Positions 3,788 through 39,199 of a stretch of 64,000 nt of DNA are shown piece after piece. Made by a program: the position numbers and the translations under genes. A model generated the notes under the pieces. The model did no database searches. It was not told the origin of the DNA and saw only the letters and a program-made list of their open reading frames with translations. The DNA comes from Candidatus Cloacimonadales bacterium. Its GTDB lineage: Bacteria > Cloacimonadota > Cloacimonadia > Cloacimonadales > JAIOQZ01. The stretch's first letter is position 1, and every line of letters starts with the position of its first letter. The stretch spans positions 2,720,001 to 2,784,000 of the forward strand of contig CAXXTU010000002.1 in assembly GCA_963662655.2 (NCBI GenBank), read 5' to 3'.

Positions 3788-3891
3788 TGGATAATTTTAA
3801 GCGGTATGGTTACTCTTGTCCCGTCCTGAAATAGGTTGACCGTTGTGTCAAAGGAGGCTCAGGTATGGGACAATCGGGCGGAATGGATAAC

Positions 3892-4025: not shown

Positions 4026-4048
4026 TGTAAGTTGACACCCTTCTTTCC
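4026..4048 (-). promoter_or_regulatory. Left-end terminal transposase-binding site
   Basis: Reverse complement GGAAAGAAGGGTGTCAACTTACA resembles the right-end unit GGAAAATGAAGGTGTCACTTTACA. Confidence 0.7.
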
Positions 4049-4052
4049 ATCT

Positions 4053-4440: not shown

Positions 4441-5241
4441 CTACTTCGCATAGTTGAAAACGCGAAACTGCATGGCCATCTCGCCGATGATCTGGAAACG
4501 CGTCAGTTCTTCATCCTCGAGGACGAGGGTTTCGTAGTCTGAATTGAAAGGCTTCAGCAGCACCTGCCGCTTCACCGGATTGTACTGCACCTTCTTGAGG
4601 GTGATGCCGTCCGAGGTGCGAACCGCGCAGACGCGTCGATCGAGGTTGTCCCAGTCGGTGCGTTGGTGAATGACCACGATGTCCCCGTGGTTGATGCGCG
4701 GCTTCATGCTGTCGCCATTGACTCGTAATGCGCAGTAGGAGTCGTGGCGGTCACGCAGAAAGGCCTTCGGGATTTCGATGTAGTCCCAGTCCGTGGTAAC
4801 GTTGTTCTCCATCGGTTCGCCTGCGGCAATCTCTCCCATCAGCGGCAAGGTGATGTTGCGCGTCTCGAAGGGCGAGAGTGGAGCCTTTGCGCCATTGCCG
4901 CTCATCTCCTCGAGCTTCTCCGTGCGACCGTTGGTCACCAGACTGCCGTCCTCGACGTGGAGAAACATATCGCCCTTGCCGGTGATGAGCCAGTTGAGGT
5001 TGACGTTGTACTCTTCGCTTATTCGAGCCAACGCTGTCGACGACGGCTTGCTCGGTTTCTTGTCGTTGATCCAGTCGGACACATTGCCCTGTGTGACGTG
5101 GATTCTCTTCGCAAACTCTGAACGCTTTATTCCAAGCGCATTTACCAGCAATTCCAAGCGTTTTCGCATCTCCATTTCATACTCCCGCACAGCTAAATTC
5201 TGCGATTTCAGGAACCTGCCACGTGGAGTCGATTGAGCCAT
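4441..5241 (-). CDS. Prophage repressor, XRE HTH plus S24 (LexA/CI-like) autopeptidase
   Basis: N-terminal HTH (EFAKRIHVTQGNVSDW), Ala-Gly site IAAGEP, catalytic GDSM and TLKK. Divergent from the ner-like gene. Start uncertain (5241 or 5180). Confidence 0.9.
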   Translation of the reverse strand: MAQSTPRGRFLKSQNLAVREYEMEMRKRLELLVNALGIKRSEFAKRIHVTQGNVSDWINDKKPSKPSSTALARISEEYNVNLNWLITGKGDMFLHVEDGSLVTNGRTEKLEEMSGNGAKAPLSPFETRNITLPLMGEIAAGEPMENNVTTDWDYIEIPKAFLRDRHDSYCALRVNGDSMKPRINHGDIVVIHQRTDWDNLDRRVCAVRTSDGITLKKVQYNPVKRQVLLKPFNSDYETLVLEDEELTRFQIIGEMAMQFRVFNYAK

Positions 5242-5242
5242 C

Positions 5243-5285
5243 AATTGACACCATTTTGTCTTTCAAGTGACGGCAGTTTTTCCTT
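5243..5285 (-). promoter_or_regulatory. Operator/enhancer-like region between repressor and ner containing end-type binding sites
   Basis: 5264-5285 is an exact 22-bp inverted copy of 38580-38601. 5245-5260 resembles the left-end site. TTGACA (5245) and TTGACG (5284) -35-like hexamers overlap these sites. Confidence 0.7.
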
Positions 5286-5374: not shown

Positions 5375-5605
5375 ATGAAACTAAACTACACAGGCCCAGA
5401 GATAAAGGCCGCTCTTGCGCTCAAAGAGCTGTCCACCATTGGCGTTGCGAGGGATATGGATGTCTCGCGCAGGGCGCTGGATTATTTCATCAAAGGACAA
5501 ATGAGTATGCGGCGAGGCGAGGAATTCCTTGCGAAATTGCAACCGGAACTCGACGAAATTCACAAGATTAGCAAGAAGCGGTTCAGAAATGCGAACCGAG
5601 ACTGA
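5375..5605 (+). CDS. Ner/Cro-like small HTH regulator
   Basis: GGAGG RBS; EIKAAL...VARDMDVSRRALDYFIKG HTH; lies between repressor and transposase as in Mu. Confidence 0.75.
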   Translation: MKLNYTGPEIKAALALKELSTIGVARDMDVSRRALDYFIKGQMSMRRGEEFLAKLQPELDEIHKISKKRFRNANRD

Positions 5606-7619
5606 CTTTCCCCGCAACGAGTTAACGATCGAGGGGATTCAAGATCGCTTCGGTGTGAGTACTGCTTCGGCTTATCGGCTGACCAAGAAGAAGGGCTGGG
5701 AGTACGTGTCGCAGGTTCTGGAGGGCGGCGGACGCCGCAAGGTGTTTTTGGTGCCGGAGCAGGACATCCCCGGCAGGAAGAAGCCCAAGAAGGCGAAGAA
5801 AGTCGCTGCTGTGAAGGTGGCGAAGACCGAGCCTGCGCCAGCTCCCGCGATCTGCGAGCAAGCCGACGATCTGCCCGACCTGACGCCGGTGGCGAGGATT
5901 CCCGAACACGAGCTCCATAGGGCGCAACTGAAGGCCGAACTCTGCGAGAAGGTGTTGCAGCTCATCTCGGAGAACGGGGTGCAGAAAACCGCGATTGCCG
6001 ACGTACTCGCCGCCTACAACACCGGACTGCTCATCCCCGACCTCTACAAGCTGGAGGGTGAACGCAACGAGCGGACGCTCCGCAACTGGCTGAAGAACTA
6101 CGAGGAGAGCGGACGCGATTTCAAGTGCCTGGTTCGGATGGCGCGGGTGTCGAACAAGAAGAAGGCGACCGAACAGGAGCAGAACTTCCTTTTGCACATG
6201 CTGCTGGATACGAACCGGGTGAAGATCGGCACGGCGATCCGCAAGCTGAAGCAGCTCTCGCGGGTCGGGGTGGTCGAGTCGCCAACCAGTAGCCGCGCGT
6301 TGCGACGCTGGTGCGAGACGTGGCGGCAACAGCATATCCAGCAGTGGAGCCTGCTCCGCAAAGGCGGCAAGCACGCCAAGGACAACATGCTGCCGACACT
6401 GCTACGAGAAGAAACGCTTCGCGTCGGTGACGTGTGGGTGGCGGACGGTCACAAGTTAGCGTTCGATATCATCGATCCCAAAACGGGCAGACCGAAGCGG
6501 ATGATGCTGATCCTGTTCTTCGACTGGGGCAGTCGCTATCCGGTGGGCGCGTCCATCGCCAACACCGAGGACTCGGAGCATATCCTGCTCGCGCTCCGCA
6601 ACGGCATCCTGCACTGGGGTGGCAGACCGCGCTTCGTCTATCTGGACAACGGCAAGGCGTTCAAGGCGAAGCTGTTTCACGACAACTGGGAGAAGCACGA
6701 CCTCGAGAACGAGCTGTGCGGCGTGTTTCCGCGACTCGACATCGGCGTGGAGTTCGCCAGAGCCTACAACGCCAGAGCCAAGGTGGTGGAGCGGTTCTTC
6801 AAGACGTTTCAGGAGGACTTCGAGCGGTTCATGGAAACGTTTCGCGGCGGCTCCATCGCGGACCGACCGGCGTATCTGAATCGCAACGAGGAATGGGTGC
6901 GCAAGCTCAAGAAGCGCGAAGCCCTCGACATCGATCAAGCGAAAGCGCTCATCGGCTTCTACTTCCAGGAGCTGTACGGTCGCACGCCGCACGGTGGACT
7001 GAATGGCAAGAAGCCGTTCGAGCTGTTCAAGGCCAATCCCGCGCCGGAAGACCGCCGCATCGACGCCAGCGAGCTGAACTTCCTGATGCTCAAGGCTGAC
7101 AGCCGCAAGGTCGGCAACAACGGCATCCGGCTCAACAACGCCCTTTACTGGCACGACGAGATGGTCAGGCACGTCGGCAAGCGGCTCCGCATCCGTTACG
7201 ACATCATGGACATGCGCTCGATCCTTCTGTTCGACGAGACCGACCGCTTCATCTGTCAGGCGGCGTTGCGGAAACTGACCCATCCATTCGTCCAGATCGC
7301 AGGCGACGAAGCACTCGCCGAGAAGGACTTGAAGCGGCAACTCGCCCACCAGCGCAAGCTCGAAAGCGACGTCAAGACCAAGTCGGCCATTCTGCGCAAG
7401 CAAGTCGACGAGGCTGTGTCGTCCCTGCCGCTGCCGCAACTGCCTGCCGCTTCGGGAAGCTTCAACAACCAGCCGCTGCTCGAGCAGGGCGAAACGCCCA
7501 GTCCACACGAGGAAGCCATCGAAGTCACTTATCAAGCCGACGCTTCCACCGTCGAGCCTGCGGAGAAGGACGACCCGCTCAAGAAGCTCGATTCGCTATT
7601 TGAAAACTTAGGATTATAG
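5589..7619 (+). CDS. MuA-type DDE transposase
   Basis: N-terminal Mu-HTH-like segment (KKGWEY...GGGRRKVF), DDE triad VADGH / LDNGKAF / KVVERFF, and a Mu transposase C-terminal-like region. The ATG at 5589 overlaps the end of ner. Confidence 0.93.
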   Translation: MRTETDFPRNELTIEGIQDRFGVSTASAYRLTKKKGWEYVSQVLEGGGRRKVFLVPEQDIPGRKKPKKAKKVAAVKVAKTEPAPAPAICEQADDLPDLTPVARIPEHELHRAQLKAELCEKVLQLISENGVQKTAIADVLAAYNTGLLIPDLYKLEGERNERTLRNWLKNYEESGRDFKCLVRMARVSNKKKATEQEQNFLLHMLLDTNRVKIGTAIRKLKQLSRVGVVESPTSSRALRRWCETWRQQHIQQWSLLRKGGKHAKDNMLPTLLREETLRVGDVWVADGHKLAFDIIDPKTGRPKRMMLILFFDWGSRYPVGASIANTEDSEHILLALRNGILHWGGRPRFVYLDNGKAFKAKLFHDNWEKHDLENELCGVFPRLDIGVEFARAYNARAKVVERFFKTFQEDFERFMETFRGGSIADRPAYLNRNEEWVRKLKKREALDIDQAKALIGFYFQELYGRTPHGGLNGKKPFELFKANPAPEDRRIDASELNFLMLKADSRKVGNNGIRLNNALYWHDEMVRHVGKRLRIRYDIMDMRSILLFDETDRFICQAALRKLTHPFVQIAGDEALAEKDLKRQLAHQRKLESDVKTKSAILRKQVDEAVSSLPLPQLPAASGSFNNQPLLEQGETPSPHEEAIEVTYQADASTVEPAEKDDPLKKLDSLFENLGL

Positions 7620-7628
7620 GAGGATACA

Positions 7629-8351
7629 ATGAAGGAACTATCGCTGGTTCGCACCCAGAACGTTCGCGAGGCCGAGAAGATGATCAGCTATCTACTCAAC
7701 CGCCCCAAGACCGAGATGGTCGGACTTGGATTGATCTACGGTCAGCCCGGGTTGGGCAAGAGCCGTTTCGCAAGGCAGACAGCCATCCGCGACGACTACA
7801 TCTACATGCGGCTGGAGTCGACCATGACCGCGAAATCGTTTTCCATCCGGCTGCTCGAGCTGGTGCAGTACCACTTCGGCATGACCAAGACCAGACCGCG
7901 CGGCACTACGAACGACATCTTCAACACGGTGATCAACATCCTGCGTATACACGACAACACGGTCATCGTCATCGATGAAATCGACTACGCCTTCAAGATG
8001 CGCAAGCTGCTCGGAGCCATCCGCGACATCGTGGACGAGACGCTCTCGGTGGTGATCCTCGTCGGCATGGCGGACGCGCGCGACCGACTTCTGCTGGCCG
8101 ATTCGCACTACTTCGACCGCTGCAACTTCTTCTGCGAGTTCAAGGAACTGGGCAGGGACGACATCCAGCAGATCTGCGACGAAGTGGCTTCGGTCAAGCT
8201 CAGCGGCGACATCGTGAAGTACCTGCACGGCAAGACCAAGGGCAACATCCGCAAGCTGGTCAAGTCGCTCTACTCCATCGAGGGCATCGCGCGCGAGCTG
8301 GACGTGGACGAGTTCGGTCTCGAGCACCTGCAGCAAGCCAAGATCGCGTAG
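7629..8351 (+). CDS. MuB/TnsC-like AAA+ transposition ATPase
   Basis: Walker A GQPGLGKS, Walker B IVIDEID; directly follows the transposase; only 240 aa. Confidence 0.9.
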   Translation: MKELSLVRTQNVREAEKMISYLLNRPKTEMVGLGLIYGQPGLGKSRFARQTAIRDDYIYMRLESTMTAKSFSIRLLELVQYHFGMTKTRPRGTTNDIFNTVINILRIHDNTVIVIDEIDYAFKMRKLLGAIRDIVDETLSVVILVGMADARDRLLLADSHYFDRCNFFCEFKELGRDDIQQICDEVASVKLSGDIVKYLHGKTKGNIRKLVKSLYSIEGIARELDVDEFGLEHLQQAKIA

Positions 8352-8360
8352 GAGGCGGCA

Positions 8361-8870
8361 GTGGATTGTGGAAAGACACGCGCCATACGCAACTTCATCG
8401 AGTACTCCACCCGTCCGTTCACGGCGGAGACGGTCAGTCAGGAAACGGGGCTGGAGCTCAGCTACGTGAAGAAGATTCTGCAGTTTCTCAGGGACACGCA
8501 GGTCGTGCAGGTCATATCGAAGGAAGGCAAGTGGAATATCTACGTCAAGGACACCACCCCCGATGACGAGAAGCCGCTGAACCGCTACGGCTACCAGAAG
8601 GACTTCATGAAGCGCATCATGATCGAGCTGATCAACAACCATCACACCAGCCAGCGGGAGCTTGGCGAAAGCGTCGGCCTCTCGCGCGACAAGCTGGTGT
8701 ACTACTTCGCCGCGATGGTCTCGGCGGGGGTGATAGGGATTCGGGACGGACAGTACGTGGTGACCGATTCGGGGAATATCGGAGCGGTCGGCATGGACGT
8801 GGACTCGAAGATTGTCCGGAAACTGAGAAAACGAGCCAGTCAGACGCCCGGTGTGGCGGTGACGGCGTAA
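8361..8870 (+). CDS. Putative DNA-binding protein with two winged-HTH-like segments
   Basis: PFTAETVSQETGLELSYVKKILQFL and TSQRELGESVGLSRDKLVYYFAAMVSAGVI segments; GGAGG RBS before a GTG start. Confidence 0.65.
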   Translation: MDCGKTRAIRNFIEYSTRPFTAETVSQETGLELSYVKKILQFLRDTQVVQVISKEGKWNIYVKDTTPDDEKPLNRYGYQKDFMKRIMIELINNHHTSQRELGESVGLSRDKLVYYFAAMVSAGVIGIRDGQYVVTDSGNIGAVGMDVDSKIVRKLRKRASQTPGVAVTA

Positions 8871-8879
8871 GGAGCATAC

Positions 8880-9479
8880 ATGGCAAGAGCGCAGAAAATG
8901 CTGACGGATGAGCACGGCAACGAATACCCCGCCAAGATCATCGATCCCGCGATCGTGAGAAGGGACGCGGTGGTCAATCGGGTGATGAAGAGGGCGATCA
9001 GCCTGCACGACAAGCTGACCCGTGACAAGGAGAGGATGGCGGCCGACATCGAGAAGTACCTCGATCAGACAGCCGAACGCTACGGCGAGTCTTGGAAGGG
9101 CAACGCCGAACTCGTCAGCTTCGACGGCCGCTTCAAGGTGGAGGTGCGGTACCGCGAGCGTATCGAGTTCTCCGAGAAACTGCAGATCGCCAAGCAGAAG
9201 ATCGACGACTGCCTGAAGCGATGGTCGCAGGACAGCGACATCAACCTGCAGGCGGTTATCAAGGAAGCGTTTCAGGTCGATAAGAAGGGGCAGATCGCCA
9301 AACACCGCATCCTCGGTCTCAGACGTTACAACATCAAGGACGAGCAGTGGAAGCAGGCGATGGAGCTCATCGACGAAGCGATCAAGGTCACCTCCACCCG
9401 CCAGTACATCGCCTTCTACCAGCGCGAGAACGCCTCGGACAGCTTCAAGCTGGTCACTCTCAACTTCAGCGCGATATAG
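8880..9479 (+). CDS. DUF3164-family Mu-like prophage protein
   Basis: KGNAELVSFDGRFKV, IAKQKIDDCL, AFQVDKKG and WKQAMELI pattern typical of this family. Confidence 0.8.
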   Translation: MARAQKMLTDEHGNEYPAKIIDPAIVRRDAVVNRVMKRAISLHDKLTRDKERMAADIEKYLDQTAERYGESWKGNAELVSFDGRFKVEVRYRERIEFSEKLQIAKQKIDDCLKRWSQDSDINLQAVIKEAFQVDKKGQIAKHRILGLRRYNIKDEQWKQAMELIDEAIKVTSTRQYIAFYQRENASDSFKLVTLNFSAI

Positions 9480-13721: not shown

Positions 13722-16700
13722 TTACTCTACTTGCCAGACATCAACTTGATTGACATCGAATCCATCACTACTATCCTTGCTAACAATCAGAAAGTAGGCG
13801 TCACCTGTTGGCAAATATGTAGCAGGAATAATGGTGCTCCCTCCGCCTCCTTCAATTGTTAACGATCTATCGGAATTCCATGTTATTGTGACCTCCATTT
13901 CACTCCCATAAGAGTAAGAGCCAATCACTTCCATTGAAAGATTGCTTTCTGACCAAGCACTAACTTCTCCATTGTACAGTTTTATCCCTCCTCCAAGAGA
14001 AGTACCATAATATACCCAGTTATTTGTCAAACCAATATACGCTTGGTCTGTATTTCCTCCGCCGGAAGCCAAAAAAGGTGTTAATATGATTGTAAACGAA
14101 AATCCCGGTTGGAATTGCTGAAGCATACGTATTTGTCCCCAGCTGACATCATTGTAACGCATATGAGCATTACTATTCGATATTGGCGGTACCCAATTGC
14201 CACCATTACTGTTGCCACTCCATTGGTTTCCTTGCCATAATGTTGAATTCCAGCTATCAAAAGTTTCTTGGATCGTTGGCTCTTCTCCGATGTCTTGCTT
14301 TTCTGCTACAACCTCGTAGAAGCCAACCGAATCCGCTCCGGAAATCGGTAGTGTAACCGTCAGAAATTCCGTAGTAGTCTCAAGCGAAGCTCCTGACATT
14401 TCAGGGTTTTGTGCTGAATACACAGAGTATTCATCAACAGCCGTTGCATTGTTGAAGATGTCCTCGGTAACCTCATCCCATGAAAGGACGACTTGATTTC
14501 CCGTGAGATCGATCAACAAGTTCTCTGGTGCTTTGGGCGGTATATTGACCGCAAGTGTGTTCGTTGCAGAAGTAGTTGTGTTTTGTGCACCATCAAGAAC
14601 CTCGATGTAGTAATTGATAACTGGGTGTTGCTGCTCGGGAAGTGTCGCCATGAACAGGTCGCTTCCCAGAGAAGTCATGTTCACGCCGATATCCCGTGTG
14701 GTTCGTGTCGTTTCCCAGTTGTAGTAAAGGATTGCATTTAGGACACCGTTTTGATCAGTAATCTCAGCCGTGATTTCAATTTCATCGGTGTAGTATATAG
14801 TGCTGGGGGTAACTTGCGTGATTTCGATTTGTGTGTCGTCATGTGGATAGAATGTCTCGGCATTGTTGCTATACGCTTCATTATCATACATATCCTCAGC
14901 CTTGATATCGACGTAGTACGTCGTTTCGGATAGAGTCGCAGTATCGATCTGCGCCGAGTAGATAGTGTCATCTGCCGTGACATCCCCGTTAAGTCCATCA
15001 TCATGCATATTGAGTGTGAATTGAGCTATTCCATCCGGTTGCTGCACGATGCAGAATACGGAATCAGGGTTCACGCCAGAACTGTTATCTGTGACTGTCG
15101 CTGTCGCCAGAATCGTTGTGCCGATCATTGGATTGTCATCCGAGACTGATACGTTCGAGATTTGTGGAGGTACCGTCTCCCCCTGCACATCAATTATATA
15201 TGTATATGTTTCTGCATTCAAGCAGTCATCTTTCGTCAGGATTTGAAGCGTGCAGTCTTCAGTAATGGTGCTGACATCGATTGCGAAAGAGTTGCCTGTG
15301 ATGGTCAGGTCAGTCCATGGATCTGAATCAAATCGATATCTCAGTAGCTCGATTTCATTCTCATCGTAAGCTGTTCCTGACAATGCTGTAATCGATTCAT
15401 TCAAATTTATCGTACCGTTATTCGATGGGAGATAGACCGTAGGAGCTTCTGAATCCCACGGGGAGAAGATTTCGATTCTCGGATTACTATCCGTGATGAG
15501 CACAGCAAACAGTTTACCATTAGGGGACCAATTCAGTTGGTACATATCTGCATTTGATTCATATTGTTTCATCTGAATCATTGTTTGATTCTCGACATCC
15601 CACAAGCATACTTTTTTGTTATTTACACCTATTGATAGTAGATATCGACTACTACCCGGTTGCCAGTCCAGTTTGCTCTCGAACCAAGCTCCACTACTCA
15701 AGGTAGTTCCTGTATATGTTGAACCGTTGTAGATTTTAATTACCTCATCTCGATAATCGCTAATTGCTAAGATGCTGCTATCATCAGAAATGGCGACACC
15801 TTTAGTGTCATCATAATATCCTGGATTGGCATCGATGTTGTATTGAAATGAACCATTGTGATTCCAGACTGAGACCAATCCATCATGGGGTGAATCTTCT
15901 ACATATGAGACTACAATGAGATTGTTGGAAAAGTCTGCCTCATATGGATCCCATGATGTATCTCTTAACTGTTGATAGCTAAGAGAAGCCCCATTATGCG
16001 TGTAAAGCCTTGTGCCATCATTACTGCCTTCAGCATATATAAACTTCTCATTAGATATCCATTCCATGTTTCCTCTACGTTCATGAAGCCATATATCGTT
16101 ATTCGTTACTAGTTGACTCTGCGAAGCAACGTCGAAAATGTAGAAATCGAATGTTGTGGTAAAAGATATCTTACTGCCGTCTGGAGACAATCTGAGTAAC
16201 TGTATTACAGAATTATCCCCATTATAGTTGAAGAAATTCATAAATATGTCATCTTCTTCATGGATTAGGTCGCGCTCCTTGCACTTGTATTGCTCACTGC
16301 TATAGAAGATGGATTTAGAGTCTGCCCCCCAGTCAAAGGTGTTGTATTCATAAGTTTGGGACATGTCTATTGACTGAACAGGAATCATTTCAGGGACAGA
16401 AACTGTTACAGGGAAGCTGAATGAATGGCTACCGCCTTCGAAAAGGATATCAACTATCGCTGTTGTATTCTCTGTGAATGTGAGTCTTGCATAACCAGCG
16501 AGAAAGCCTGTGCTGATTGTAACAAAGTCCTTGGAATGTTGGTTGTTATCGAACAAGCCTTGCTCACATGTAAGTGTTAAAGGCATACCTGAATCTACAG
16601 GAGACCCTTGATCATACACACGAATACTAAGATCATAAATCGAGTATGTGGCATTATCTCCTGAATAGTAAACAGCTGCAGTTTGGAAGGTGTAATCATG

Positions 16701-18534
16701 ATCTGGTGCAACAATGTCGACTTCGGATATGTCATACACATCGTCGTTATCAGCATCTACACAGACTATATCAACGGTTCCCTCCATCTGGGGATAGTAT
16801 CCGACTGATGCAACACCTTCAGCATTGGTACAAACAGGATTATTATCCTGGAAGTATCCCATGTTTGGCGACTGCCAGAAATTGACTGGGTGATTCGCTA
16901 CAGCTGGTGTGATCGTTGCGTAGATGGTTGTGAGTTCGCCTACTTCAAACGGAGTCTCTTCGAATGATAACGCAATGCCTTCTGCAGGCTGTGGACTGAC
17001 GGTGAATGTAAGGGGGCCGTATGCTGGATATGGATTCTGGCAATCGTTGGCAATGAACTGGTAGGAATGTTGACCAAGTCCTATTTCTGAGCCTTCCATG
17101 TTATAAGTGAAACATTGACCGTCATAGGACATTTCATGAAGATCACCATCGATTGAAACTTGAACGATGGAAAACTCGTTCGGGTCATAGTGTTGAACGC
17201 TGAAAGTGAATTGATCATTCTCATATCCGTTTTCGGGATTAACAACACCATCAAACATGTAATTGTCTGGCAGTGTATTAGTTATCGTGAAATGACCAGC
17301 ATTCTCATCTGGGGCAGTGATAGAATACGCCGTTGCATGTTCACCCGTTGTTTGACCAGAGACCTCGACGATGTAGTCATTGGATGATGGCAAAGTTTCG
17401 ATGATATTCAGTCCATATAAGCCACTACTCAATGTGGCACAATATGCACCCGGTTCAACAGCCGAAAATGTACCCGTTCCTGCTGTTACAGCATTTGATC
17501 CATTTGAATAGGCCATTGTTAAGTTCACATCAGTTTGCTCAATAATGCTGAAATCGAAGCCGAAGTTTATCCAGTCAGAATCTTCAAACTCAATCTCATA
17601 TGTGTCAGACCCATTACTATCCAAGAAAGACCAAGTTCCTGCTGCCACTATATTCGACGAAACTGGGTTCATGTTGTTATAATCGTCGATATTCTCATTC
17701 ATTATTGTCAGAACTTCGCTACACATCGCTGCATGATAGGGAACCATTATTGTAAGATAGACGGTCGGGCTCATTAAAGCTATGCCTTGATATGCCAGTA
17801 AGTCCGTGCTTACATTGTCCATTATCGCATACATAGCTTCTTCGATAATCATTTCTGCTACACCTGAACTTAGGAATGTTTCAACAGCAATCGCTACAGG
17901 CCCAGATAAGAATACTGACGCTACATGTAAACCTCCTGTAACTGCGCCAGCGGCAAAGCCTACAGCCAAATGAATGCCAAACTCAGGAGTAGTCATAAGG
18001 CTCCAGTCCCAGTCATGTTGGTATAAGTACATGACGCCAGAAGAAGCTGCGCCAACAACTCCATGTAGTGTCATCCAAGTAGCTAAAGAAATTGTAACAG
18101 GCTCCCGACTTTCAAGTGAAGCCGCATCAATATTCATTGCATACGCATAGACATTCATGGCTTCAGTAGCTCCAATCAATTCTTTGGGAAATCTTGATAA
18201 TGGAACTTCCGTTACCAGATGTGTATTGAGATGATCTTCTTCAAGGCATGCCTTAGTGTAGAGTGTGTGTACGAAATTATTGAATAGCACACAATCTTCG
18301 TATGTCATCTCATCGAGAATACTTGCGAACTCGCTTTGCTCGATTCCTAAGTGATCCAGAAATTCGTTGTAAAATTCACTGTCAGCGGTAGCTATATACT
18401 CAAGCAAGTTATCATTGATTATAGCTTCATGGCAATTCACCAGTTGGAAGTGGGTAACATTCAGTTGGTGCACTGGCGAGTGATGTGATGCTGAACAAGA
18501 AAAGCACGAAAACGATAACAGAGACTTTGATCAT
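13722..18534 (-). pseudogene. Giant secreted multidomain protein (~1600 aa; glycine-rich hydrophobic region, Ig-like domains, WD40-like propeller), frameshifted near the 5' end
   Basis: RBS, ATG (18534) and signal peptide MIKVSVIVFVLFLFSITSLAS lie in a frame that stops at 18427. The 1583-codon body is in another frame. Confidence 0.75.
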
Positions 18535-18705
18535 GATTCCTCCAAAGTTTTTTAGTATTATTCGTCTATCAATATGCAAACCCCATGCCATCCGGCTTGA
18601 TGGCGACAATCTCACTATGATTCAATGAGATACATTTTTGCCATTTATTCATCATGTTGCAGTTCCGCCACAATATGTGGTGAAATGGCAACATATTGAT
18701 TTCTA

Positions 18706-21660
18706 TCACTCAACTTGATGATTTCCCCGCAGCACCTCATCCACATTCACAGCCACAGCGAAATCCACGTCCAGTTTGTCGAAATGCGCCTGTCCGCACT
18801 GGATTTTCTGGTTCTCGGACGCTCTTCGCTTGTCCGGATCATGGGTGCTCTTGGTTTCGCGGACGAGATAGAGCTTGTTGTCATGCTCGGTCACCACTGC
18901 CCAGTCGGGATTGTAGCTGCCGATGGGCGTCGGTACCTTGAACCAGTGGGGCAGCTTGCAGAAGAACTTCACGTTCTCGTTCTGGTCGAGCTTCTGTGCA
19001 ATCTCGCGCTCGACTTCCGAATCGACGACAATGCTGTCGTATGGCGTGCGGTTGTCCTTGCTCTGCACCTCGTAAAGCCGCTTCAGGTACTCGGTCAGCT
19101 CGATCTGCTTGCCTTCGTCGTCCAGCTCGAACTGCTCCATAAGGAAGTAGGTGTCCGGTATCTTCTCGTACTGGATGCCATCGATAATCATCTCGTTCAA
19201 GGCGCGTTTGATCTGCCTCGAGACAGCCGTCATGAAGCTCTGCGGATTCTTGCGGAACTGCCCGATTTTGCCGGAGCGAGCCAGTATATCCAGGAGCGTC
19301 TGTCGCGTGAGTTCCGTCTCGCGCTGAAGGAACGCAAGGATATCCGGCAAGCCGCCCTGAATCTTCACCTCTTCCGAGTAGGTATCCACCGTCTTTCCAT
19401 CGATACCGCTCTTCTTCATATCCACCTCTGTCCGGTCGATGTACAGCATCAGCGGTTCGATATCCGGCATCTGCTGAATGTAGGCAGACGCCCGGTCGAT
19501 GAGGTCTTGCGTGCTGAACTGCACCCTGTATCGCGTCTTCTGGCTGATGCGCTGCCATAGCTCTTTGAAATCCTCGTTGAGCATCACCCGCTTGTTGAAG
19601 CGCACCGTTCGTTTCGTGGAAGCTTTCTGAATGCGATTGCGCAATGTGAAGCCCTTCAGAACTTCCTTCACCTGCGCTTCCAAAGGCTTGAAGCAATCCG
19701 GCAGGGCGAGTGGTCGCTCCGGATCGAACACATCGGTTATGCTGGCGACATTGTCCTCGCGAAGCAGATAACCCTCGCGGATCAACGCCTGCCACAGCTC
19801 CTTCGACTGCTCCTGCCCAATCCTGGCTCCAGCCACATCAACAACGTTGGCGAACGCGATCGGCGACACCTTGCCAAACTGGATACCGCACTCACGCTCG
19901 TAATCGGTCTGAAGCCCCCTGGCGTATTGCTCGAACGACTCGGAAGCGATGACGGTGAGGCGGTTCACGTTGCGGTCATGCACCCGCTCGCCGTTCTGGT
20001 TAACCGGCAGGCGAAGTCCGCGCCCAAGCGTCTGACGTCGCTGGCGTTCCGTGTTCATATCGCGCAGGGAGCATATCTGGAACACGTTCGGGTTGTCCCA
20101 GCCCTCTTTCAATGCAGAATGACTGAAGATGAAGCGTAAGGGCTCGGTGTTGGAAAGCAACTTCTCCTTGTCCTGCATGATGAGATGATAGGTATCCTCG
20201 TCGGCCTGCGTCGAGCCGCTGGTGTCTTTCTCGATAACGCGACCCTTCTTCTTATCCACCGAGAAATAGCCGTTGTGCACCTCGTCGGCCGGGAAGGGAA
20301 TCAAGCCCATGTATTCCTGCTTGTTCGCAAACTCGTTATAGACTTCCTCGAACCACCGGGCGACCATACCCTTCTCCACAGAACCATCCTCGTTGTACAG
20401 GCGATAGCTCTTCACCTGATGCACGAAGAACAGGGTTAAAACCTTGATGCCCTGCCCCTTGAGCCGTTTCTCCTTCTCGAAATGATGCTGCACGGCAAGG
20501 CGCACCTGCTCCTTCAGCATCGCTTCGGCCAGACCGCCAAGCTCCTTGCCGGGTTCCAGCCGCACACCGTTGGCGAACTCCACATGCTCGTCGCCCGGTT
20601 GCAAGCTGATGCGAGTAACTCTGTAGCCCTCGTAGCCCGGATAGTTCGTCTTGTCGGCAAGGTCGGCGCGGTGCTTGAGGGTCACTGGTTTCTTCTTCAC
20701 CTCGGCGTTCCTGCCGTAGCTCATTACCTTCACCTTCGCCTGTGGGGTCTTGCCATTCTTGGGATAGCCGATCGACTCCAAACTCAAGTACACATCGGTG
20801 ACGCTGTCCTCGGTGCGGATGGAATCCACCTCGATCTGCTTCACGAGTCCCATATCGTAGGCTTGAATCGGATCGAGGCGATAGACAAGATTGTAGGGGT
20901 TGATATGCGTGGCGGAATATCGCAGGGCGAGAAGCGGGTTCAGCTCTTTGATGGCGTCCTTCGAGACCTCCGCCGTGTCCACGCTCTGCGGCTCGTCGAT
21001 GATGACGATGGGCCGCGTGCGCTGGATGTACTCGATCGGCTTGCCGCCGTTCATGTTGTCGCGTTCCTGATGGATGACGTTGATATCCTTCTTGCGGAAC
21101 GCCTGAATGTTGATGATCATGATCTGGATGGCGGAAGAGACGGCGAACGAATTGACCTCGCCAAGCTTGTCGGAGCTATACACGAAGCTGTTGAAGCTCA
21201 CGTTGTTGTAGAGACCCTTGAAGTGATCGGTCATCAGGCGGATGGACGAGGTGACGCCCTCGCGGATGGCAACCGACGGCACCACGATGATGAACTTGCT
21301 ATAGCCGTAACGCTTGTGCAGCTCGAAGATGGTGCGCAGATAGACGTAGGTCTTGCCGGTGCCGGTCTCCATCTCCACGCTGAAGTTGGGGAAGCTGTAG
21401 CTGTCGTCCGGGGCGATGATTTGCGTCGATTTCTCGATCTGGTTGCGCTGCTGCACGGTGTGCAGGTTCTTCAGCATCGCCTCGTCGTTGGGCAGCAGAG
21501 CGTTGGCATACACGCCTTCGTCCAGCTTGCTGGCGCCGTATTGCAGGCCCTGACTCAGCTCGAAGTCGGACTGGCGCGGGGGCAGACCCGTGAACAGGTC
21601 GCACACGGCGTTGATGGCGTCTTGCTGGAATTGCAGGTTGGCGTCGAACTTCAGTTTCAC
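18706..21660 (-). CDS. res: Type III restriction endonuclease Res subunit
   Basis: VEMETGTGKTY, IIDEPQ, SALKEGWDNPNVFQIC, QTLGRGLRL and YNPDWAV...ETK motifs. Confidence 0.95.
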   Translation of the reverse strand: MKLKFDANLQFQQDAINAVCDLFTGLPPRQSDFELSQGLQYGASKLDEGVYANALLPNDEAMLKNLHTVQQRNQIEKSTQIIAPDDSYSFPNFSVEMETGTGKTYVYLRTIFELHKRYGYSKFIIVVPSVAIREGVTSSIRLMTDHFKGLYNNVSFNSFVYSSDKLGEVNSFAVSSAIQIMIINIQAFRKKDINVIHQERDNMNGGKPIEYIQRTRPIVIIDEPQSVDTAEVSKDAIKELNPLLALRYSATHINPYNLVYRLDPIQAYDMGLVKQIEVDSIRTEDSVTDVYLSLESIGYPKNGKTPQAKVKVMSYGRNAEVKKKPVTLKHRADLADKTNYPGYEGYRVTRISLQPGDEHVEFANGVRLEPGKELGGLAEAMLKEQVRLAVQHHFEKEKRLKGQGIKVLTLFFVHQVKSYRLYNEDGSVEKGMVARWFEEVYNEFANKQEYMGLIPFPADEVHNGYFSVDKKKGRVIEKDTSGSTQADEDTYHLIMQDKEKLLSNTEPLRFIFSHSALKEGWDNPNVFQICSLRDMNTERQRRQTLGRGLRLPVNQNGERVHDRNVNRLTVIASESFEQYARGLQTDYERECGIQFGKVSPIAFANVVDVAGARIGQEQSKELWQALIREGYLLREDNVASITDVFDPERPLALPDCFKPLEAQVKEVLKGFTLRNRIQKASTKRTVRFNKRVMLNEDFKELWQRISQKTRYRVQFSTQDLIDRASAYIQQMPDIEPLMLYIDRTEVDMKKSGIDGKTVDTYSEEVKIQGGLPDILAFLQRETELTRQTLLDILARSGKIGQFRKNPQSFMTAVSRQIKRALNEMIIDGIQYEKIPDTYFLMEQFELDDEGKQIELTEYLKRLYEVQSKDNRTPYDSIVVDSEVEREIAQKLDQNENVKFFCKLPHWFKVPTPIGSYNPDWAVVTEHDNKLYLVRETKSTHDPDKRRASENQKIQCGQAHFDKLDVDFAVAVNVDEVLRGNHQVE

Positions 21661-21669
21661 AGCCGCCCC

Positions 21670-23691
21670 CTACACCGTGCGGAAGATGATCGGTTCGGCG
21701 TCGGCGCGGTCTTCGTTGAGCGCTTTGAAGGTCTGCGCGGCGTTGGCCTTGAGCTGGTCGTTGCCGTGGAAGGCGCTATCGAGGCAGATGAACTGCATAG
21801 GCTGCCGCGCCACCACTTCGTCCACAAGCTCCTGCGTGATCTCGTTTTCCAGGCACAGCATCAGCGCGCCATCGGCGATGGAATACACCCGCTTCCCGGC
21901 CAGTTGGAGTGTCTCCATCGGCTCGGTGAGGGTGTAGCCTGCCTTCAGCAGTATCTCAAAGAGGATGTCCTCCTCGGTGGCGTTCTCGTCGAGGTGGAAC
22001 ACGTGCTGGTGCAGGTAGTCGAGAATCTCCTCCTCGGTGGCGTCCACGCTGAGGTCTTGCCACACGCGGAAGTTGGAGCGCGCCAGCTTAAACACGCGAA
22101 AGCCGAGGTCTTGCGGCGATTTTTCCTCTTCCAGTCCGGGCAGCGTGGGTTCCTTCTCGGCCTGCTCCGCCCTGATCTTTTGAATGACGCGTCGGATGCG
22201 TTCCTTGCCGATCTCGGCGATGGTTCTTGGGACACCAAGCCTGTCGCAGAACTTGATTGCTGTCTTGTTTTTCTTTTTCCTTTCCTCTGTATCATCCAGT
22301 GATTCAGGATATTGAACCATAACATATTGTCGCTGTCCGTCATCTTCGAGATTCAACGAGAATACTGCATGCGCAAAGGTACAGGTTCCTGCAAAGAAAT
22401 CAACCACAATTGAGTCATCATTACTTCCTAAAGACAGAAGCCTTTGTAAGTAATCTGAGCCTTTCGGAAAATCGAAAAGTTTCTCACCCCCAAAGAGATC
22501 TTTCAATTCAGAAGTTCCGCTTCGAAACTTCATCAAATTCTTTGGAGTATTGAATCCAGATTGGCGAAAGAAAACACCATAATCATTACCTTTTTTTTCT
22601 ATGATGACTTCCGCTTTTCTCTCTATGAATCCCTCAAAACCCCATCTCCATCTATGAAGTTTGTTGTTTCGACTTCCTGGGCGTATGGCAATGTATCCTT
22701 TATCAATCAGATCTTGACGTGTTGAATAGACTTGTTCCTCAAGATTCAAGTGGATTTTTGTTTTATCGTAATCATTCACAGGAAAGAAATCACCTGTTGT
22801 CGGATTATAATAGATACTATAACCCATATCAGGTCGTGTTTCAAGCGGCGTAGGTGCATCGTTCAGATTTCGTAAGGAGTCATCGACCTTATCAACATGG
22901 TTGATTACCATTTGACTTGCTGAAAGGGCATACACTAAACAGTACTCAGTATTTGTTTGAATTTGAATACCTTCACCAGATTGATTTGCTCCAGTGATTA
23001 GAACTATCTGAGCCAGAAAATTCCCCTCCCCAAACACCTCATTGCAAAGCTTCTTGAGGTTATCCACCTCGTTGTCGTCAATACTGATGAAGATGACGCC
23101 GTCCTCGCGCAGGAGGTTGCGCGCCAGGTAGAGGCGTGGGTACATCATGTTGAGCCAGTTGGTGTGGTAGCGGCCCTCGGTGGCGGCGTTGGTGGTGAGC
23201 TTGCGGCCCTCTTCGTCGGTCTGTCCGGTGAGTTCGAGGTAGTTTGCCAGGTTGTCGTGGTAGTTGTCCTTGTACACGAAGTCCTTGCCGGTGTTGTAGG
23301 GCGGATCGATGTAGATCATCTTCACCTTGCCGAAGTAGCTCTTCTGCAACAGGCGCAGCACTTCGAGGTTGTCGCCCTCGAGGAACAGGTTCTGCGTGGC
23401 GTCGAAATCGACGCTTTCGTCGCGGCAGGGTTTGAGGGTGGCGGTGGTGCGCTGCTGCAGAATGCGCATGGCGTCGCGTTTGCCGGGCCAGTTCATGCCG
23501 TAGCGTTCGCGGCGGTTCTCGAACACCTCGGAGAACTCGCCCAGCGCGGCTTTCAGCTTCTCCCAGTCAATGCCTTCCACGGGGTTGCCGCGCTCGTCGA
23601 GGCTCTCGGTAAACACCTCGGGGAGCAGTTGTTTCAGTTGCGTTCGTTTATCTTCAGCCACCGGTTCGGTGCGCAGGTCGATTTTTTTCAT
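21670..23691 (-). CDS. mod: Type III R-M methyltransferase Mod subunit
   Basis: EGDNLEVL, IYIDPPYNTG, WLNMMYPRL and DFFAG motifs; upstream of res. Confidence 0.95.
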   Translation of the reverse strand: MKKIDLRTEPVAEDKRTQLKQLLPEVFTESLDERGNPVEGIDWEKLKAALGEFSEVFENRRERYGMNWPGKRDAMRILQQRTTATLKPCRDESVDFDATQNLFLEGDNLEVLRLLQKSYFGKVKMIYIDPPYNTGKDFVYKDNYHDNLANYLELTGQTDEEGRKLTTNAATEGRYHTNWLNMMYPRLYLARNLLREDGVIFISIDDNEVDNLKKLCNEVFGEGNFLAQIVLITGANQSGEGIQIQTNTEYCLVYALSASQMVINHVDKVDDSLRNLNDAPTPLETRPDMGYSIYYNPTTGDFFPVNDYDKTKIHLNLEEQVYSTRQDLIDKGYIAIRPGSRNNKLHRWRWGFEGFIERKAEVIIEKKGNDYGVFFRQSGFNTPKNLMKFRSGTSELKDLFGGEKLFDFPKGSDYLQRLLSLGSNDDSIVVDFFAGTCTFAHAVFSLNLEDDGQRQYVMVQYPESLDDTEERKKKNKTAIKFCDRLGVPRTIAEIGKERIRRVIQKIRAEQAEKEPTLPGLEEEKSPQDLGFRVFKLARSNFRVWQDLSVDATEEEILDYLHQHVFHLDENATEEDILFEILLKAGYTLTEPMETLQLAGKRVYSIADGALMLCLENEITQELVDEVVARQPMQFICLDSAFHGNDQLKANAAQTFKALNEDRADAEPIIFRTV

Positions 23692-23862
23692 GATTCCTCC
23701 AAAGAAGTGCGTATATCTCACAAACAAGTTTCCTATTCAACTTGCAAGTAAGCGAAACATGAAAAAAAGCACAAGGAAAAAATCGCCGGCGGCTTGAAAC
23801 ATCCGTGGTAAGCGTGGGCAAGCCGCTTTGCCATGCTTACATCCCCTTCCTACTCTCGCCCC

Positions 23863-29958: not shown

Positions 29959-30720
29959 ATGGATAGTCTGATTACATGGATCGGCGGCAAGAAGCTGCTG
30001 CGAAAGAAAATCGCCGCATTGGTGCCGGACGACATCACCGGTTACGTAGAGCCGTTCGGCGGCGCGGGTTGGGTGCTCTTTCACCGTGACCGCTGGGCTC
30101 GTCTCGAGGTGTACAACGACCTCGATGCGCGGCTGACGAACCTCTTCCTGCAGGTGAAGTTCCACCCCGACGCGCTCGTGAAGGAGCTCGAGCTGATGCC
30201 AGCCTCACGCGCCCTGTTCGACGAGCTGGTCGAGCAGCCCGGACTCACGGAGCTGCAACGCGCCGCGCGATTCCTCTACATCATCACCCGCTCGTTCGGC
30301 GGCAAGGGCGAACACTTCGGACGCGCCTCGACATCAGGTCCGAGCAGTATGCAGCGCAAGTTAGCTCGCGTCCACGACCTCAGCACGCGGCTCGACAAGG
30401 TGACCATCGAACACCTGCCCTACGAGGAGCTGATCGCCTTCTACGACCGGCCCGGCGTGTTCTTCTACTGCGACCCGCCATACGTGCATGGCACGACATA
30501 CGCCAACGCCAGACACTTCGACCACGAGAAGCTCCGCGACGTATTGAAGGGCGTGAAAGGCCGCTGGCTACTCTCCTACGACGACTGCCCTGAGGTGCGC
30601 GAGCTGTACGCTGGTCACACCATCATCCCGGTCTCTCGCGTGAAGGGGATCAACCGGATGAAGGGCGAGAGCATGTTCAAGGAGGTTATCATCGCAAACT
30701 ACGAGGTGTCAGATGAATAG
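29959..30720 (+). CDS. DNA adenine methyltransferase (Dam/D12 class)
   Basis: WIGGK, YVEPFGGAG, YNDLD and FYCDPPY motifs. Confidence 0.92.
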   Translation: MDSLITWIGGKKLLRKKIAALVPDDITGYVEPFGGAGWVLFHRDRWARLEVYNDLDARLTNLFLQVKFHPDALVKELELMPASRALFDELVEQPGLTELQRAARFLYIITRSFGGKGEHFGRASTSGPSSMQRKLARVHDLSTRLDKVTIEHLPYEELIAFYDRPGVFFYCDPPYVHGTTYANARHFDHEKLRDVLKGVKGRWLLSYDDCPEVRELYAGHTIIPVSRVKGINRMKGESMFKEVIIANYEVSDE

Positions 30721-31588
30721 CGTCATCGGCTGGGTGGGCGGCAAGCGACTCTTGCGCAAGGCGATTGTTCCGCTCATCCCGAAGCACGACACACATGGTG
30801 AGTGCGAAGCACGAATCCACTACGTCGGGAAAACTCGCAGCTTGAACCTGCTGGATAGCTGGTCAGGACTCACGCCTATCGGCGTTCGCCATAACTGCGA
30901 ACCCTTTGCTGGTGCAGCATGGATCCTGTTCGCTAAGTCGCGCGACCACAAGGAATGGCAGGCGACGAAGGGCCAGAAGTACCGCGAAATCCTCAACGAC
31001 ATCAACGGCGAGTTGGTGAATTTCTGGCGGCATGTGAAGCACCATCCGGCCGCGCTGAAAGCGGAACTCGACCGGCTTCTCGCCTCGCGGGAGCTGTTCC
31101 ACGAGTTCCTCGATAGCGAGTCGCGCACCGACCTCGAACGCGCGGTGCGCTTCTACTACGTGCTGGCGTGTTCCTACGGCAGTCTCAGCAGCACGTTCGC
31201 CGTGCGCGGTCACCTGACCATGCTGCCGATCCGTCGCGTGGGCAAGCTGGAAGCTGCCAGTGAGAGGCTACGAGACGTGATCATCGAGCGACTCGACTAC
31301 GAGGCCGTCATCCGCAAGTACGACCGACCAGCGACGTTCTTCTACATCGACCCGCCCTACTACGAGCGTGAGATGCTCTACGAGCGCGACAAGGTGGCTG
31401 CCTTTGACCAGCACGAGGAGCTGGCCAAGCTGCTACGCGAGGTGCAGGGCAAATGGCTGCTCAGCTACAATGACCACCCCGTTATCCGCGAGCTGTACAA
31501 GAACTTCACCATCGATGTGGTGAACACGAGATACTCGGTGTCTGGAACGAACAGAGCGAGTTCAGAGATACTGATCAGGAACTTCTAA
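30713..31588 (+). CDS. Second DNA adenine methyltransferase (Dam/D12 class) with an in-frame insertion
   Basis: WVGGK, EPFAGAA, LNDIN and FYIDPPY motifs; about 33 extra residues before EPF. Confidence 0.9.
   Translation: MNSVIGWVGGKRLLRKAIVPLIPKHDTHGECEARIHYVGKTRSLNLLDSWSGLTPIGVRHNCEPFAGAAWILFAKSRDHKEWQATKGQKYREILNDINGELVNFWRHVKHHPAALKAELDRLLASRELFHEFLDSESRTDLERAVRFYYVLACSYGSLSSTFAVRGHLTMLPIRRVGKLEAASERLRDVIIERLDYEAVIRKYDRPATFFYIDPPYYEREMLYERDKVAAFDQHEELAKLLREVQGKWLLSYNDHPVIRELYKNFTIDVVNTRYSVSGTNRASSEILIRNF
30794..30892. repeat. Palindromic ~99-bp in-frame insertion element
   Basis: Ends ATGGTGAG / TTCGCCAT are complementary with G-T pairs; internal hairpins GTGC-GAA-GCAC and ACGCC-TATC-GGCGT. 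Confidence 0.7.
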
Positions 31589-38531: not shown

Positions 38532-38579
38532 GCCTTGATTTCAGGACAATAGCTTCATTTGTGCCAGCATGTTTTCCTT

Positions 38580-38981
38580 AAGGAAAAACTGCCGTCACTT
38601 GCAGTTTGACTGTAACTTGCCGATTGAAGAGAAGATAGCTGGTATTCGCATGAATGACATTCTGCTTTCTAAACCACTGCAACAACTGGAAAACGGCTCG
38701 AAACGATGGAAAAATTGCCGTCACTGGAAGGAAAGACTGCCGTCACTTGCAACTTGGGAAAGTGACTACATGAATGTGTTTGATGGTGCGGGAGATAAGG
38801 GCATTTCCTGTCACTTCGACTTGTTGCACGATGGAAAACATGCTGTCACAAAGTGGAAAATGAAGGTGTCACTTTACATAAGGAAAACATGCTGTCACAA
38901 AGTGGAAAATGAAGGTGTCACTTTACAAGTGGAAAATGAAGGTGTCACTTTACAACTTTACATTTACACAGTCATTTTACA
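38580..38981 (+). repeat. Prophage right end: array of GGAAA-n-TGCYGTCAC-type sites plus stacked terminal duplications
   Basis: Sites near 38582, 38708, 38730, 38800, 38833 and 38855. 46 bp is identical at 38833-38878 and 38882-38927. Further suffix copies end at 38954, 38962, 38968, 38970 and 38981. Confidence 0.9.
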
Positions 38982-39013
38982 GCATTGCAGATAAACGATC
39001 TATAAGATAAAAG

Positions 39014-39090
39014 TGGTGGGTGATACTGGATTCGAACCAGTGACCTCATCGATGTGAACGATGCGCGCTAACCAGCTGTGCCAATCACCC
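39014..39090 (-). tRNA. tRNA-Val(CAC)
   Basis: GGGTGAT/ATCACCC acceptor stem, CATCG-TTCACAT-CGATG anticodon arm, GGTTCGAATCC T-loop, encoded CCA. Confidence 0.95.
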
Positions 39091-39122: not shown

Positions 39123-39199
39123 TGGTGGGTGATACTAGATTCGAACTAGTGACCCCTTCGATGTCAACGAAGTACTCTAACCAACTGAGCTAATCACCC
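39123..39199 (-). tRNA. tRNA-Val(GAC)
   Basis: Cloverleaf with CTTCG-TTGACAT-CGAAG anticodon arm and encoded CCA. Confidence 0.95.

Follow-up and report, generated by a model that had tools for sequence, protein, structure and literature searches.

A tRNA-Val(cac) gene in the genome of an uncultured Cloacimonadota bacterium is faced by the right end of a Mu-like prophage, and the stretch that directly follows that end at 38878, 103 bp in total (38879-38981), consists of six head-to-tail suffixes of the end itself. We think it likely that these 103 bp are the stubs of serial, same-orientation insertions by related Mu-like phages into the last ~50 bp of right ends beside tRNA-Val. Right ends of this phage family lie 28-90 bp from the 3' ends of tRNA and tmRNA genes far above chance and always face the gene, and resident right ends are found with a left end within them or immediately behind them. 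Throughout, the window is the whole stretch of DNA that was analysed, 64,000 nucleotides in length.

By gene content and by its ends, the element at 4026-38878 (~35 kb) is a Mu-like transposable prophage. Its termini have the form TG...CA, with TGTAAGTTGACACC at 4026, GGTGTCACTTTACA ending at 38878, and several subterminal 22-bp repeats. The features on which the analysis draws are these:

4026..4051, plus strand: left terminus TGTAAGTTGACACC..., an inverted repeat with the right end (2 mismatches in 14)
4441..5244, minus strand: CI-type repressor, HTH plus S24 peptidase (Pfam)
5529..7619, plus strand: DDE transposase A, rve core plus Mu-transpos_C (Pfam 9.6e-19 for Mu-transpos_C; phrog_310, 2.2e-92)
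7629..8351, plus strand: AAA+ transposition protein B, AAA_22/TniB-like, directly after A (phrog_296, 1.9e-25)
8361..8870, plus strand: tandem winged-helix protein, the gene after B (profile and fold searches)
38558..38878, plus strand: right-end region with subterminal repeats (sequence and repeat analysis)

Also encoded between the ends are DUF3164, a small and a large terminase, a Mu-F-like protein, a portal and a protease fusion (Pfam, PHROGs), together with low-GC cargo on the minus strand that comprises a type III restriction-modification pair and a 1583-aa WD40 protein. Neither a tyrosine nor a serine recombinase was found among the ORFs scanned with Pfam and PHROGs, in agreement with the first-pass annotation, which had proposed a transposable phage without an integrase. 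A ~22-bp motif, GGAAA..TGC.GTCAC, recurs in the right 320 bp at least six times in direct orientation and once inverted, and its copies are presumed transposase sites. The last two of them occupy the terminal 49 bp of the right end.

Reading outwards from that end towards the tRNA genes, the stack is composed as follows:

ending at 38878, plus strand: right terminus ...GGTGTCACTTTACA (sequence)
38879..38927, plus strand: stub 1, a 49-bp right-end suffix with two terminal sites, 2 mismatches against the resident's last 49 bp
38928..38954, plus strand: stub 2, a 27-bp suffix equal to the terminal site (exact match)
38955..38962, plus strand: stub 3, ACTTTACA, an 8-bp right-end suffix
38963..38968, plus strand: stub 4, TTTACA, a 6-bp right-end suffix
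38969..38970, plus strand: stub 5, CA, a 2-bp right-end suffix
38971..38981, plus strand: stub 6, GTCATTTTACA, 11 bp with 1 mismatch
38982..39013, no strand: 32-bp spacer from the outermost stub to the tRNA 3' end (sequence)
39014..39090, minus strand: tRNA-Val(cac), intact, 3' end towards the right ends
39123..39199, minus strand: tRNA-Val(gac)

A greedy suffix parse covers all 103 consecutive bases, whereas no shuffle of the flank out of 20,000 exceeded 12, and the same parse started at 8,995 other positions of the window reached 7 at most. TRF describes the stack as a repeat of period 49 (2.2 copies, 92% matches) and reports tandem periods of 27 and 8 as well. Stub 5 is meaningless by itself; the remaining stubs are far beyond chance. 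The sequence and the shuffle test therefore confirm the stack of terminal suffix copies that had been reported on first inspection, and the seven CA ends do lie 136, 87, 60, 52, 46, 44 and 33 bp from tRNA-Val, as had been stated. A 151-nt Logan record (run X15) matches 38859-39009 with 0 differences and 0 gaps and spans the whole stack; with a depth of 2 and an origin in the study that also yielded the best holders, it is weak and perhaps not independent support. The repeats break up the Logan contigs of X13, X14 and X16, and 38929-39002 is uncovered in X13 and X14, which is evidence neither way.

The left junction of the prophage holds a further piece of a right end, next to a piece of an insertion sequence:

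3817..3873, plus strand: solo left end (57 bp) of a 1333-bp IS, with 8 full IS copies elsewhere in the genome
3880..4025, plus strand: older right-end remnant of the TAAGG variant, a direct copy of 38703-38849 without the last 29 bp

The remnant is 91% identical to the right end over 137 bp. As it is a right end cut at -29 that adjoins the left terminus, the present prophage sits in an older right end. Both this remnant and stub 1, the latter at its start, carry TAAGG (...TAAGGAAA...), where the resident right end has GATGG (...GATGGAAA...), and each variant is found in relatives. Because its variant differs from that of the resident end, stub 1 derives from another element and was not copied from the present prophage.

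Further to the left the record has been disturbed. In three congeners (G001-G003) a different gene lies next to the malic-enzyme gene, and in the window's genome (G000) that neighbour is found 270 kb away, beside an IS copy. The solo IS end and the displaced neighbour mark the left flank as a rearrangement breakpoint, uninformative on the pre-insertion site. The first-pass annotation had looked to relatives for an empty malic enzyme/tRNA-Val allele. This expectation did not hold, as the malic-enzyme flank is not the ancestral one and the allele is absent in the relatives examined. The relatives yielded no empty site: tRNA-Val(cac) is occupied in G001, G002 and G006, and in G003 it lies away from the oxidoreductase gene.

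We compared the region with 61 relatives by BLAST and inspected the flanks; all genomes compared are metagenome assemblies. Right ends facing a tRNA were arranged as follows:

G001, tRNA-Val(cac): stubs of 13 + 8 bp after the full end, gap to the tRNA 40 bp
G002, tRNA-Val(cac): stubs of 11 + 15 bp after the full end, gap to the tRNA 35 bp
G003, tRNA-Pro(ggg): stubs of 50 + 17 bp after the full end, gap to the tRNA about 62 bp
G001, tRNA-Pro(ggg): single right end facing the tRNA, gap 45 bp
G002, tRNA-Pro(ggg): single right end facing the tRNA, gap 65 bp
G006, tRNA-Pro(cgg): single right end facing the tRNA, gap 42 bp
G006, tRNA-Pro(ggg): single right end facing the tRNA, gap 48 bp
G036, tRNA-Pro(cgg): single right end facing the tRNA, gap 46 bp
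G030, tRNA-Arg(cct): single right end facing the tRNA, gap 28 bp

A contig of G006 starts with ACTTTACA, followed by CTTCACA (a 7-bp stub), 40 bp and tRNA-Val(cac), and the tmRNA locus of G007 also has a 7-bp stub. Comparable yet different stacks occur in four other assemblies. That such stacks are found in independent assemblies, one of them a single 3.9-Mb contig, speaks more strongly for real DNA than the read record does. Many right-end loci of relatives have no stub at all. Had the stack been the normal structure of the end, as the first-pass annotation had allowed, it would be identical at every locus; instead, it reads 13+8 in G001, 11+15 in G002 and 50+17 in G003.

Several relatives hold junctions that have not collapsed. 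One right end in G003 is cut at -11 and another at about -66, each followed by a left end, and at two further G003 loci a full right end is followed by GC and a left end. The corresponding junction in G006 has a right end cut at -2 and then a left end, and in the metagenome contigs L080 and L084 the right end and the left end are 46 and 22 bp apart. Serial same-orientation insertion into the terminus of a resident, proposed from the window alone, is supported by left ends seen directly inside or just after resident right ends. The histories are not always simple. The small elements at tRNA-Val in G001 and G002 have left and right flanks that share no duplication, and in the uncollapsed C5 array of G003 the flanks of the middle element misfit a simple two-step history, while the third element runs off the contig.

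Other loci in the window's genome show the same kinds of arrangement. Two copies of the same right end adjoin tRNA-Pro(ggg), at C2:311599 and 311498, with a 77-bp IS remnant between them and the outer one 50 bp from the tRNA 3' end. A sibling family, whose transposase is 48% identical, is represented by a 31-bp solo right-end stub, then CACAC, then a left end. CACAC also follows the sibling's right end, and its presence on both flanks indicates a 5-bp target duplication exactly at the tip of a resident right end; an assembly break within that prophage, however, puts the two ends of the sibling on separate contigs. A third, distinct Mu-like family sits at tRNA-Arg(ccg), where its end ...GCCTGACACTTTATA is followed by a 46-bp suffix, TTTATA, one base and the tRNA, giving stub lengths of 46+6. 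Excision footprints were considered as an origin of stubs and rejected, as the stack of the window holds no left-end prefixes, and a ~10.5-bp periodicity of stub lengths was dropped because the data are too few.

The association with tRNA genes was assessed with a pattern that makes no reference to them, TGTCAC-N15-20-GTCACTTTAYA, over 232 genomes of the phylum. It gave 37 matches in 22 of the 232 genomes, and the reversed pattern gave none. After merging, the matches represent 35 loci; at 15, ARAGORN places a tRNA or tmRNA no more than 250 bp downstream, in every case with the 3' end of the gene towards the right end. With 50 such genes per 3-Mb genome, 0.07 tRNA-adjacent loci are expected, giving a P of about 2e-31, or of about 5e-18 if only nine gene-by-genus combinations are counted as independent; as kin are not independent, these values are upper bounds on significance. 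Put differently, the 250-bp 3' flanks of tRNA genes make up ~0.4% of a ~3-Mb genome, yet hold 43% of the loci. The genes concerned are those for Val(cac), Pro(ggg), Pro(cgg), Pro(tgg), Arg(cct), Asn(gtt) and Asp(gtc) and the tmRNA gene, and the distance from right end to tRNA is 28 to about 90 bp, and up to 205. At the opposite terminus, none of 11 left-end loci had a tRNA beside it within the flank fetched.

The other 20 of the 35 loci lie away from tRNAs. One abuts a CRISPR repeat and one lies ~200 bp before a CRISPR array; four, in four genomes of three genera, are upstream of the same STAND/TPR sigma-54 activator gene; one is a tandem junction and one abuts an IS-like end. The remaining 12 have no evident feature, though for one of them a tmRNA missed by ARAGORN may lie ~250 bp away. 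Homing to a tRNA-adjacent site, as the first-pass annotation had it, therefore stands in that right ends recur at tRNA and tmRNA 3' flanks in one orientation, and falls short in that this site is not exclusive. The targeting of tRNAs is a strong preference.

Could the association arise if tRNA genes are not recognized at all? Insertion at any existing right-end remnant would suffice if the tRNA link reflected a few old founders, together with selection for harmless sites or for an orientation that spares the early operon from tRNA read-through. Insertion into resident ends is directly seen, spacing from the tRNA is loose and more than half of the loci lie elsewhere, no selector gene emerged from the Pfam, PHROGs and fold searches, and the tRNA-Val(cac) site is occupied in four related genomes and could be partly inherited. 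Such founders would nevertheless have to account for at least eight different occupied tRNA or tmRNA genes in several genera and families, for several loci at which no older stub is detectable (tRNA-Pro in G001, G002 and G006; G045; G036), and for the concentration of 43% of loci in ~0.4% of the genome. We consider this account unlikely.

The remaining alternatives concern the stack rather than its address. If the transposase used an outer CA, then the longer stubs would travel as part of a duplicated terminus and would not be a local record. That the 49-bp stub carries two complete terminal sites, and that stubs of 46-50 bp recur at three loci (the window, tRNA-Pro in G003 and the tRNA-Arg(ccg) family), would suit such a composite end. 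We nonetheless find it very unlikely, because the inner and outer copies differ in variant in the window (GATGG versus TAAGG) and are paired differently in G003, such a stub accompanies only a minority of the copies of this end, and the stubs of 2-17 bp are left unexplained. Slippage during replication, or tandem duplication of the terminus in place, would need no new insertions. It could produce the tandem periods of 49, 27 and 8 that TRF detects, and some slippage is needed anyway for a missing 34-bp unit (see below). All units end on the terminal CA while their start points vary, however, which fits events anchored at the terminus and not slippage of a fixed unit; the first bases of stub 1 differ from the resident end and match other elements; and slippage cannot create the right end-left end junctions of relatives. 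Its probability is, if anything, lower again than that of a composite end. Lastly, the genome is metagenome-derived and in 2 contigs, one break falling inside a prophage, and the contigs of X13 and X14 leave 38929-39002 uncovered, so misassembly of repeats deserves mention, as it did in the first-pass annotation. Given a short-read record that spans the stack and matches 38859-39009 exactly, albeit one record at depth 2, and comparable stacks in independent assemblies that include the one-contig genome, we attach almost no probability to an artefact.

We therefore return to serial insertion into right ends. On this model, right ends that bear transposase sites would draw an incoming transpososome to themselves or to the DNA beside them, whereas target immunity in Mu has the opposite effect. 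Stubs recur at lengths of 27 and 46-50 bp, and these lengths match the borders of the two terminal sites, as might be expected if insertion took place in DNA that is bent or exposed beside bound transposase; Mu transposase favours bent targets. Each insertion would split the resident end and leave its distal piece as a stub, the outermost stub then being the oldest, and the lineage would also prefer the tRNA 3' flank, through some selector. Older bodies would have been lost later, by homologous recombination between tandem copies, by deletion or by IS-mediated rearrangement. Of these, the first-pass annotation had named recombination. It is kept as one route, but not as the only one: the left-flank remnant in the window survives beside an IS remnant and breakpoint and, like the G003 arrays of internally deleted elements, points to deletion and IS-mediated rearrangement as further routes.

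Some details of the window require additional steps. An insertion at -29 that duplicated 5 bp should have left a 34-bp stub immediately beyond the present end, and this stub is absent. As a perfect tandem repeat of the end, the missing unit may have been lost by slippage, which is the weakest link of the reconstruction. The flanks of the element are GTCAC on the left and TAAGG on the right, with no shared 5-bp duplication. The left remnant and stub 1 share an overlap of 20 bp (1 mismatch), for which we have to assume either a hybrid history or one or more further deletions. Since the repressor of a lysogen should block homoimmune newcomers, the newcomers would have been heteroimmune or their targets dead remnants.

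Phage Mu is the textbook example of near-random transposition with target immunity, and Tn7-like elements are the textbook example of directed insertion. Like Mu-like phages of the D3112, B3 and BcepMu type, the window element has a left-end repressor divergent from an early operon with DDE A and AAA+ B, terminase, portal and Mu-F-like genes, and TG...CA termini with several ~22-bp subterminal sites. A 5-bp target duplication, a further trait of such phages, is indicated in the sibling element, whose ends lie on two contigs; the two flanks of the window element differ. One paper states that Mu spares about 5 kb outside its ends (cis-immunity), that no self-insertion occurred among ~10 million insertions and that Mu undersamples tRNA genes, and it passes on the view that the ancestry of Mu lies in a Tn7-type target search (PMC7350765). 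In the family studied here, by contrast, newcomers insert within the final 0-66 bp of resident right ends, and the 3' end of a tRNA or tmRNA gene is faced by 15 of the 35 right ends. The window element is Mu-like by its genes and ends, and it fails the hallmark of random target choice with immunity.

The transposition proteins also differ from those of Mu in their nearest solved relatives. For transposase A, the sole solved relatives at E<0.01 are TnsB chains of type V-K CASTs (4e-8), and for protein B the best is ShTnsC, a weak match (0.0037), so that at the thresholds used A and B are nearer to V-K CAST TnsB and TnsC than to any MuA or MuB chain. With Tn7-like elements and CASTs the window element shares a MuA/TnsB-type transposase with an AAA+ adaptor, and an oriented insertion shortly downstream of a tRNA gene; the right end of Tn7 adjoins its attachment gene. 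Its outermost stub lies 32 nt from tRNA-Val, compared with a CAST homing distance of 30-33 nt. Tn7-like CASTs home to tRNA genes through TnsD, 30-33 nt downstream, CAST I-D homes 30-33 nt after a tRNA-Leu gene, I-B2 uses tRNA-Val, and the Mu clade of the TnsC tree has no selector (PMC10293859). The window element differs from these systems in that it is a ~35-kb phage without TnsA, TniQ/TnsD or CRISPR parts among the ORFs scanned; the spacing of its family is loose (28-90 bp) and there is no target immunity, while orientation is the same in 15 of 15.

Two other kinds of mobile element bear comparison. Members of the IS30, IS21 and IS3 families insert at the inverted repeats of their own kind, and head-to-tail dimers spaced by 2-3 bp result. 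The preference for the end of a resident copy is shared, and the right end-GC-left end junctions of G003 are similar in form, but these are small ISs that move via circle or dimer intermediates, of which there is no sign here. Prophages and islands of the integrase type occupy the same class of chromosomal site at tRNAs and can fill one site serially. They differ from the window element, which has no recombinase among the ORFs scanned and has the ends of a transposon; here, the tRNA lies outside any repeated att core, and the left junction is a right-end remnant rather than a tRNA fragment.

A TniQ/TnsD selector was found neither in a Pfam scan of 39 ORFs nor in the PHROGs scan, and the ORFs scanned, which were the larger ones, included no TnsA endonuclease or CRISPR effector. 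In the operons of Tn5053 and V-K elements tniQ follows the B-type gene, the same slot that is taken here by 8361-8870. The product of this gene is a tandem winged-helix protein with a single cysteine, an AlphaFold model with pLDDT 91.5 and 52 relatives at E <= 0.001 among 1.84 billion representative proteins (HMMER), and 30 relatives are also winged-helix. Foldseek against the PDB returned no TniQ-like fold, giving generic tandem winged helices only, none at E <= 0.001. The protein is at most a candidate target selector; as the sibling family encodes a 28%-identical homologue, the presence of the gene does not discriminate.

We tentatively propose, with less confidence than for the insertions themselves, that a Mu-like lineage may have kept or regained a Tn7-style directed search. 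TnsB/TnsC-like A and B and a selector, possibly the winged-helix protein, would deliver a ~35-kb genome right-end-first to tRNA and tmRNA 3' flanks, with an attraction to resident right ends, and the stubs would be a layered record of infection. A search of the full-text literature found no description of tRNA-directed Mu-like phages or of transposable prophages of Cloacimonadota. If the proposal is true, a Mu-like phage that lands at tRNA genes and on resident right ends would represent either a living intermediate or a reversal, and the A/B machinery would not be bound to immunity. A route for placing ~35 kb of DNA at a defined, harmless site, guided by protein and free of CRISPR, might also follow from it. 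Stub stacks would preserve the order in which phages successively infected a single locus, a record that is rarely available.

Searches of larger collections extended the family somewhat. In genome contigs, a strict right-end pattern returned only the genomes already found and one chance match. In metagenome contigs it returned 9 loci, of which 2 are real (L080 and L084, described above), both of them right end-left end tandem junctions. Further tRNA-adjacent cases came from BLAST and IMG/VR. A looser pattern gave 20 loci in viral contigs; one contig (L144) stops 2 bp past the motif, and another (L127) clearly belongs to the same family and has tRNA-Pro(cgg) 184 nt away.

A third, distinct Mu-like family, with the terminus ...GCCTGACACTTTATA, adjoins tRNA-Arg(ccg) outside the window, at G000:C2:344718-344790 (G000 being the window's own genome, with contigs C1 and C2). 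There the family's end is followed by a 46-bp suffix stub, then TTTATA, one base and the tRNA; a tblastn search located no transposase for this element. At tRNA-Val, the 32 bp separating the outermost stub from the tRNA gene (window 38982-39013) are closer to the native tRNA-Pro(ggg) flank at G000:C2:311448-311480 than to the tRNA-Val flanks of congeners, which could reflect either chance in AT-rich DNA or flank DNA that was carried over.

Right ends also lie at sites other than tRNA genes. In one subfamily, they lie 100-150 bp upstream of one and the same gene, for a 1434-aa STAND/TPR/GAF sigma-54 activator, in four genomes of three genera (loci L088, L089, L091, L092 and L110 in G090, G097, G123 and G137); the shared position marks either a second preferred target or an old remnant passed on by descent. 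At L085 (G061:C13), a right end immediately abuts a partial CRISPR repeat, GGTGTCAAGCTGAAAC, that is similar to the phage terminus, and at L046 (G001:C1:1837672) the right end lies about 200 bp short of a CRISPR array.

The end-repeat regions of Mu-like elements repeatedly hold, within them or directly after them, a 1333-bp IS or its remnants, of which G000 has eight full copies plus remnants. These sites are:

Window 3817-3873; G000:C2:311523-311599, 319200-319217, 3322452, 3407922, 1311697 and 1615407: 1333-bp IS or remnants at Mu-like ends

At G000:C2:319217, an IS-like end comes after a right end, with GC between the two. Compared with the phage left end, the IS end (TGTCCCGTCC..GGTTGACC) shows a loose resemblance.

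The interior of the window prophage carries low-GC cargo on the minus strand, and two methyltransferase genes stand among its late genes:

Within window 13722-23727, minus strand: 1583-aa protein with WD40 repeats
Within window 13722-23727, minus strand: type III restriction enzyme (ResIII and endonuclease domain)
Within window 13722-23727, minus strand: methylase of the type III restriction enzyme
Window 29959-31588: two D12-class adenine methyltransferase genes, side by side

The sole contig break in the G000 assembly falls inside a sibling Mu-like prophage (C1:1-20970 and C2:1-10342). A mini derivative of the window prophage's own family, in which a partial repressor gene is fused to the last gene, lies at G000:C2:2453959-2454962, flanked on either side by an IS copy and near the gene that in relatives comes after malic enzyme. 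In a related genome, three family members stand in an uncollapsed tandem array (L107-L109, G003:C5:10400-31400), the middle one internally deleted and only about 10.5 kb long.
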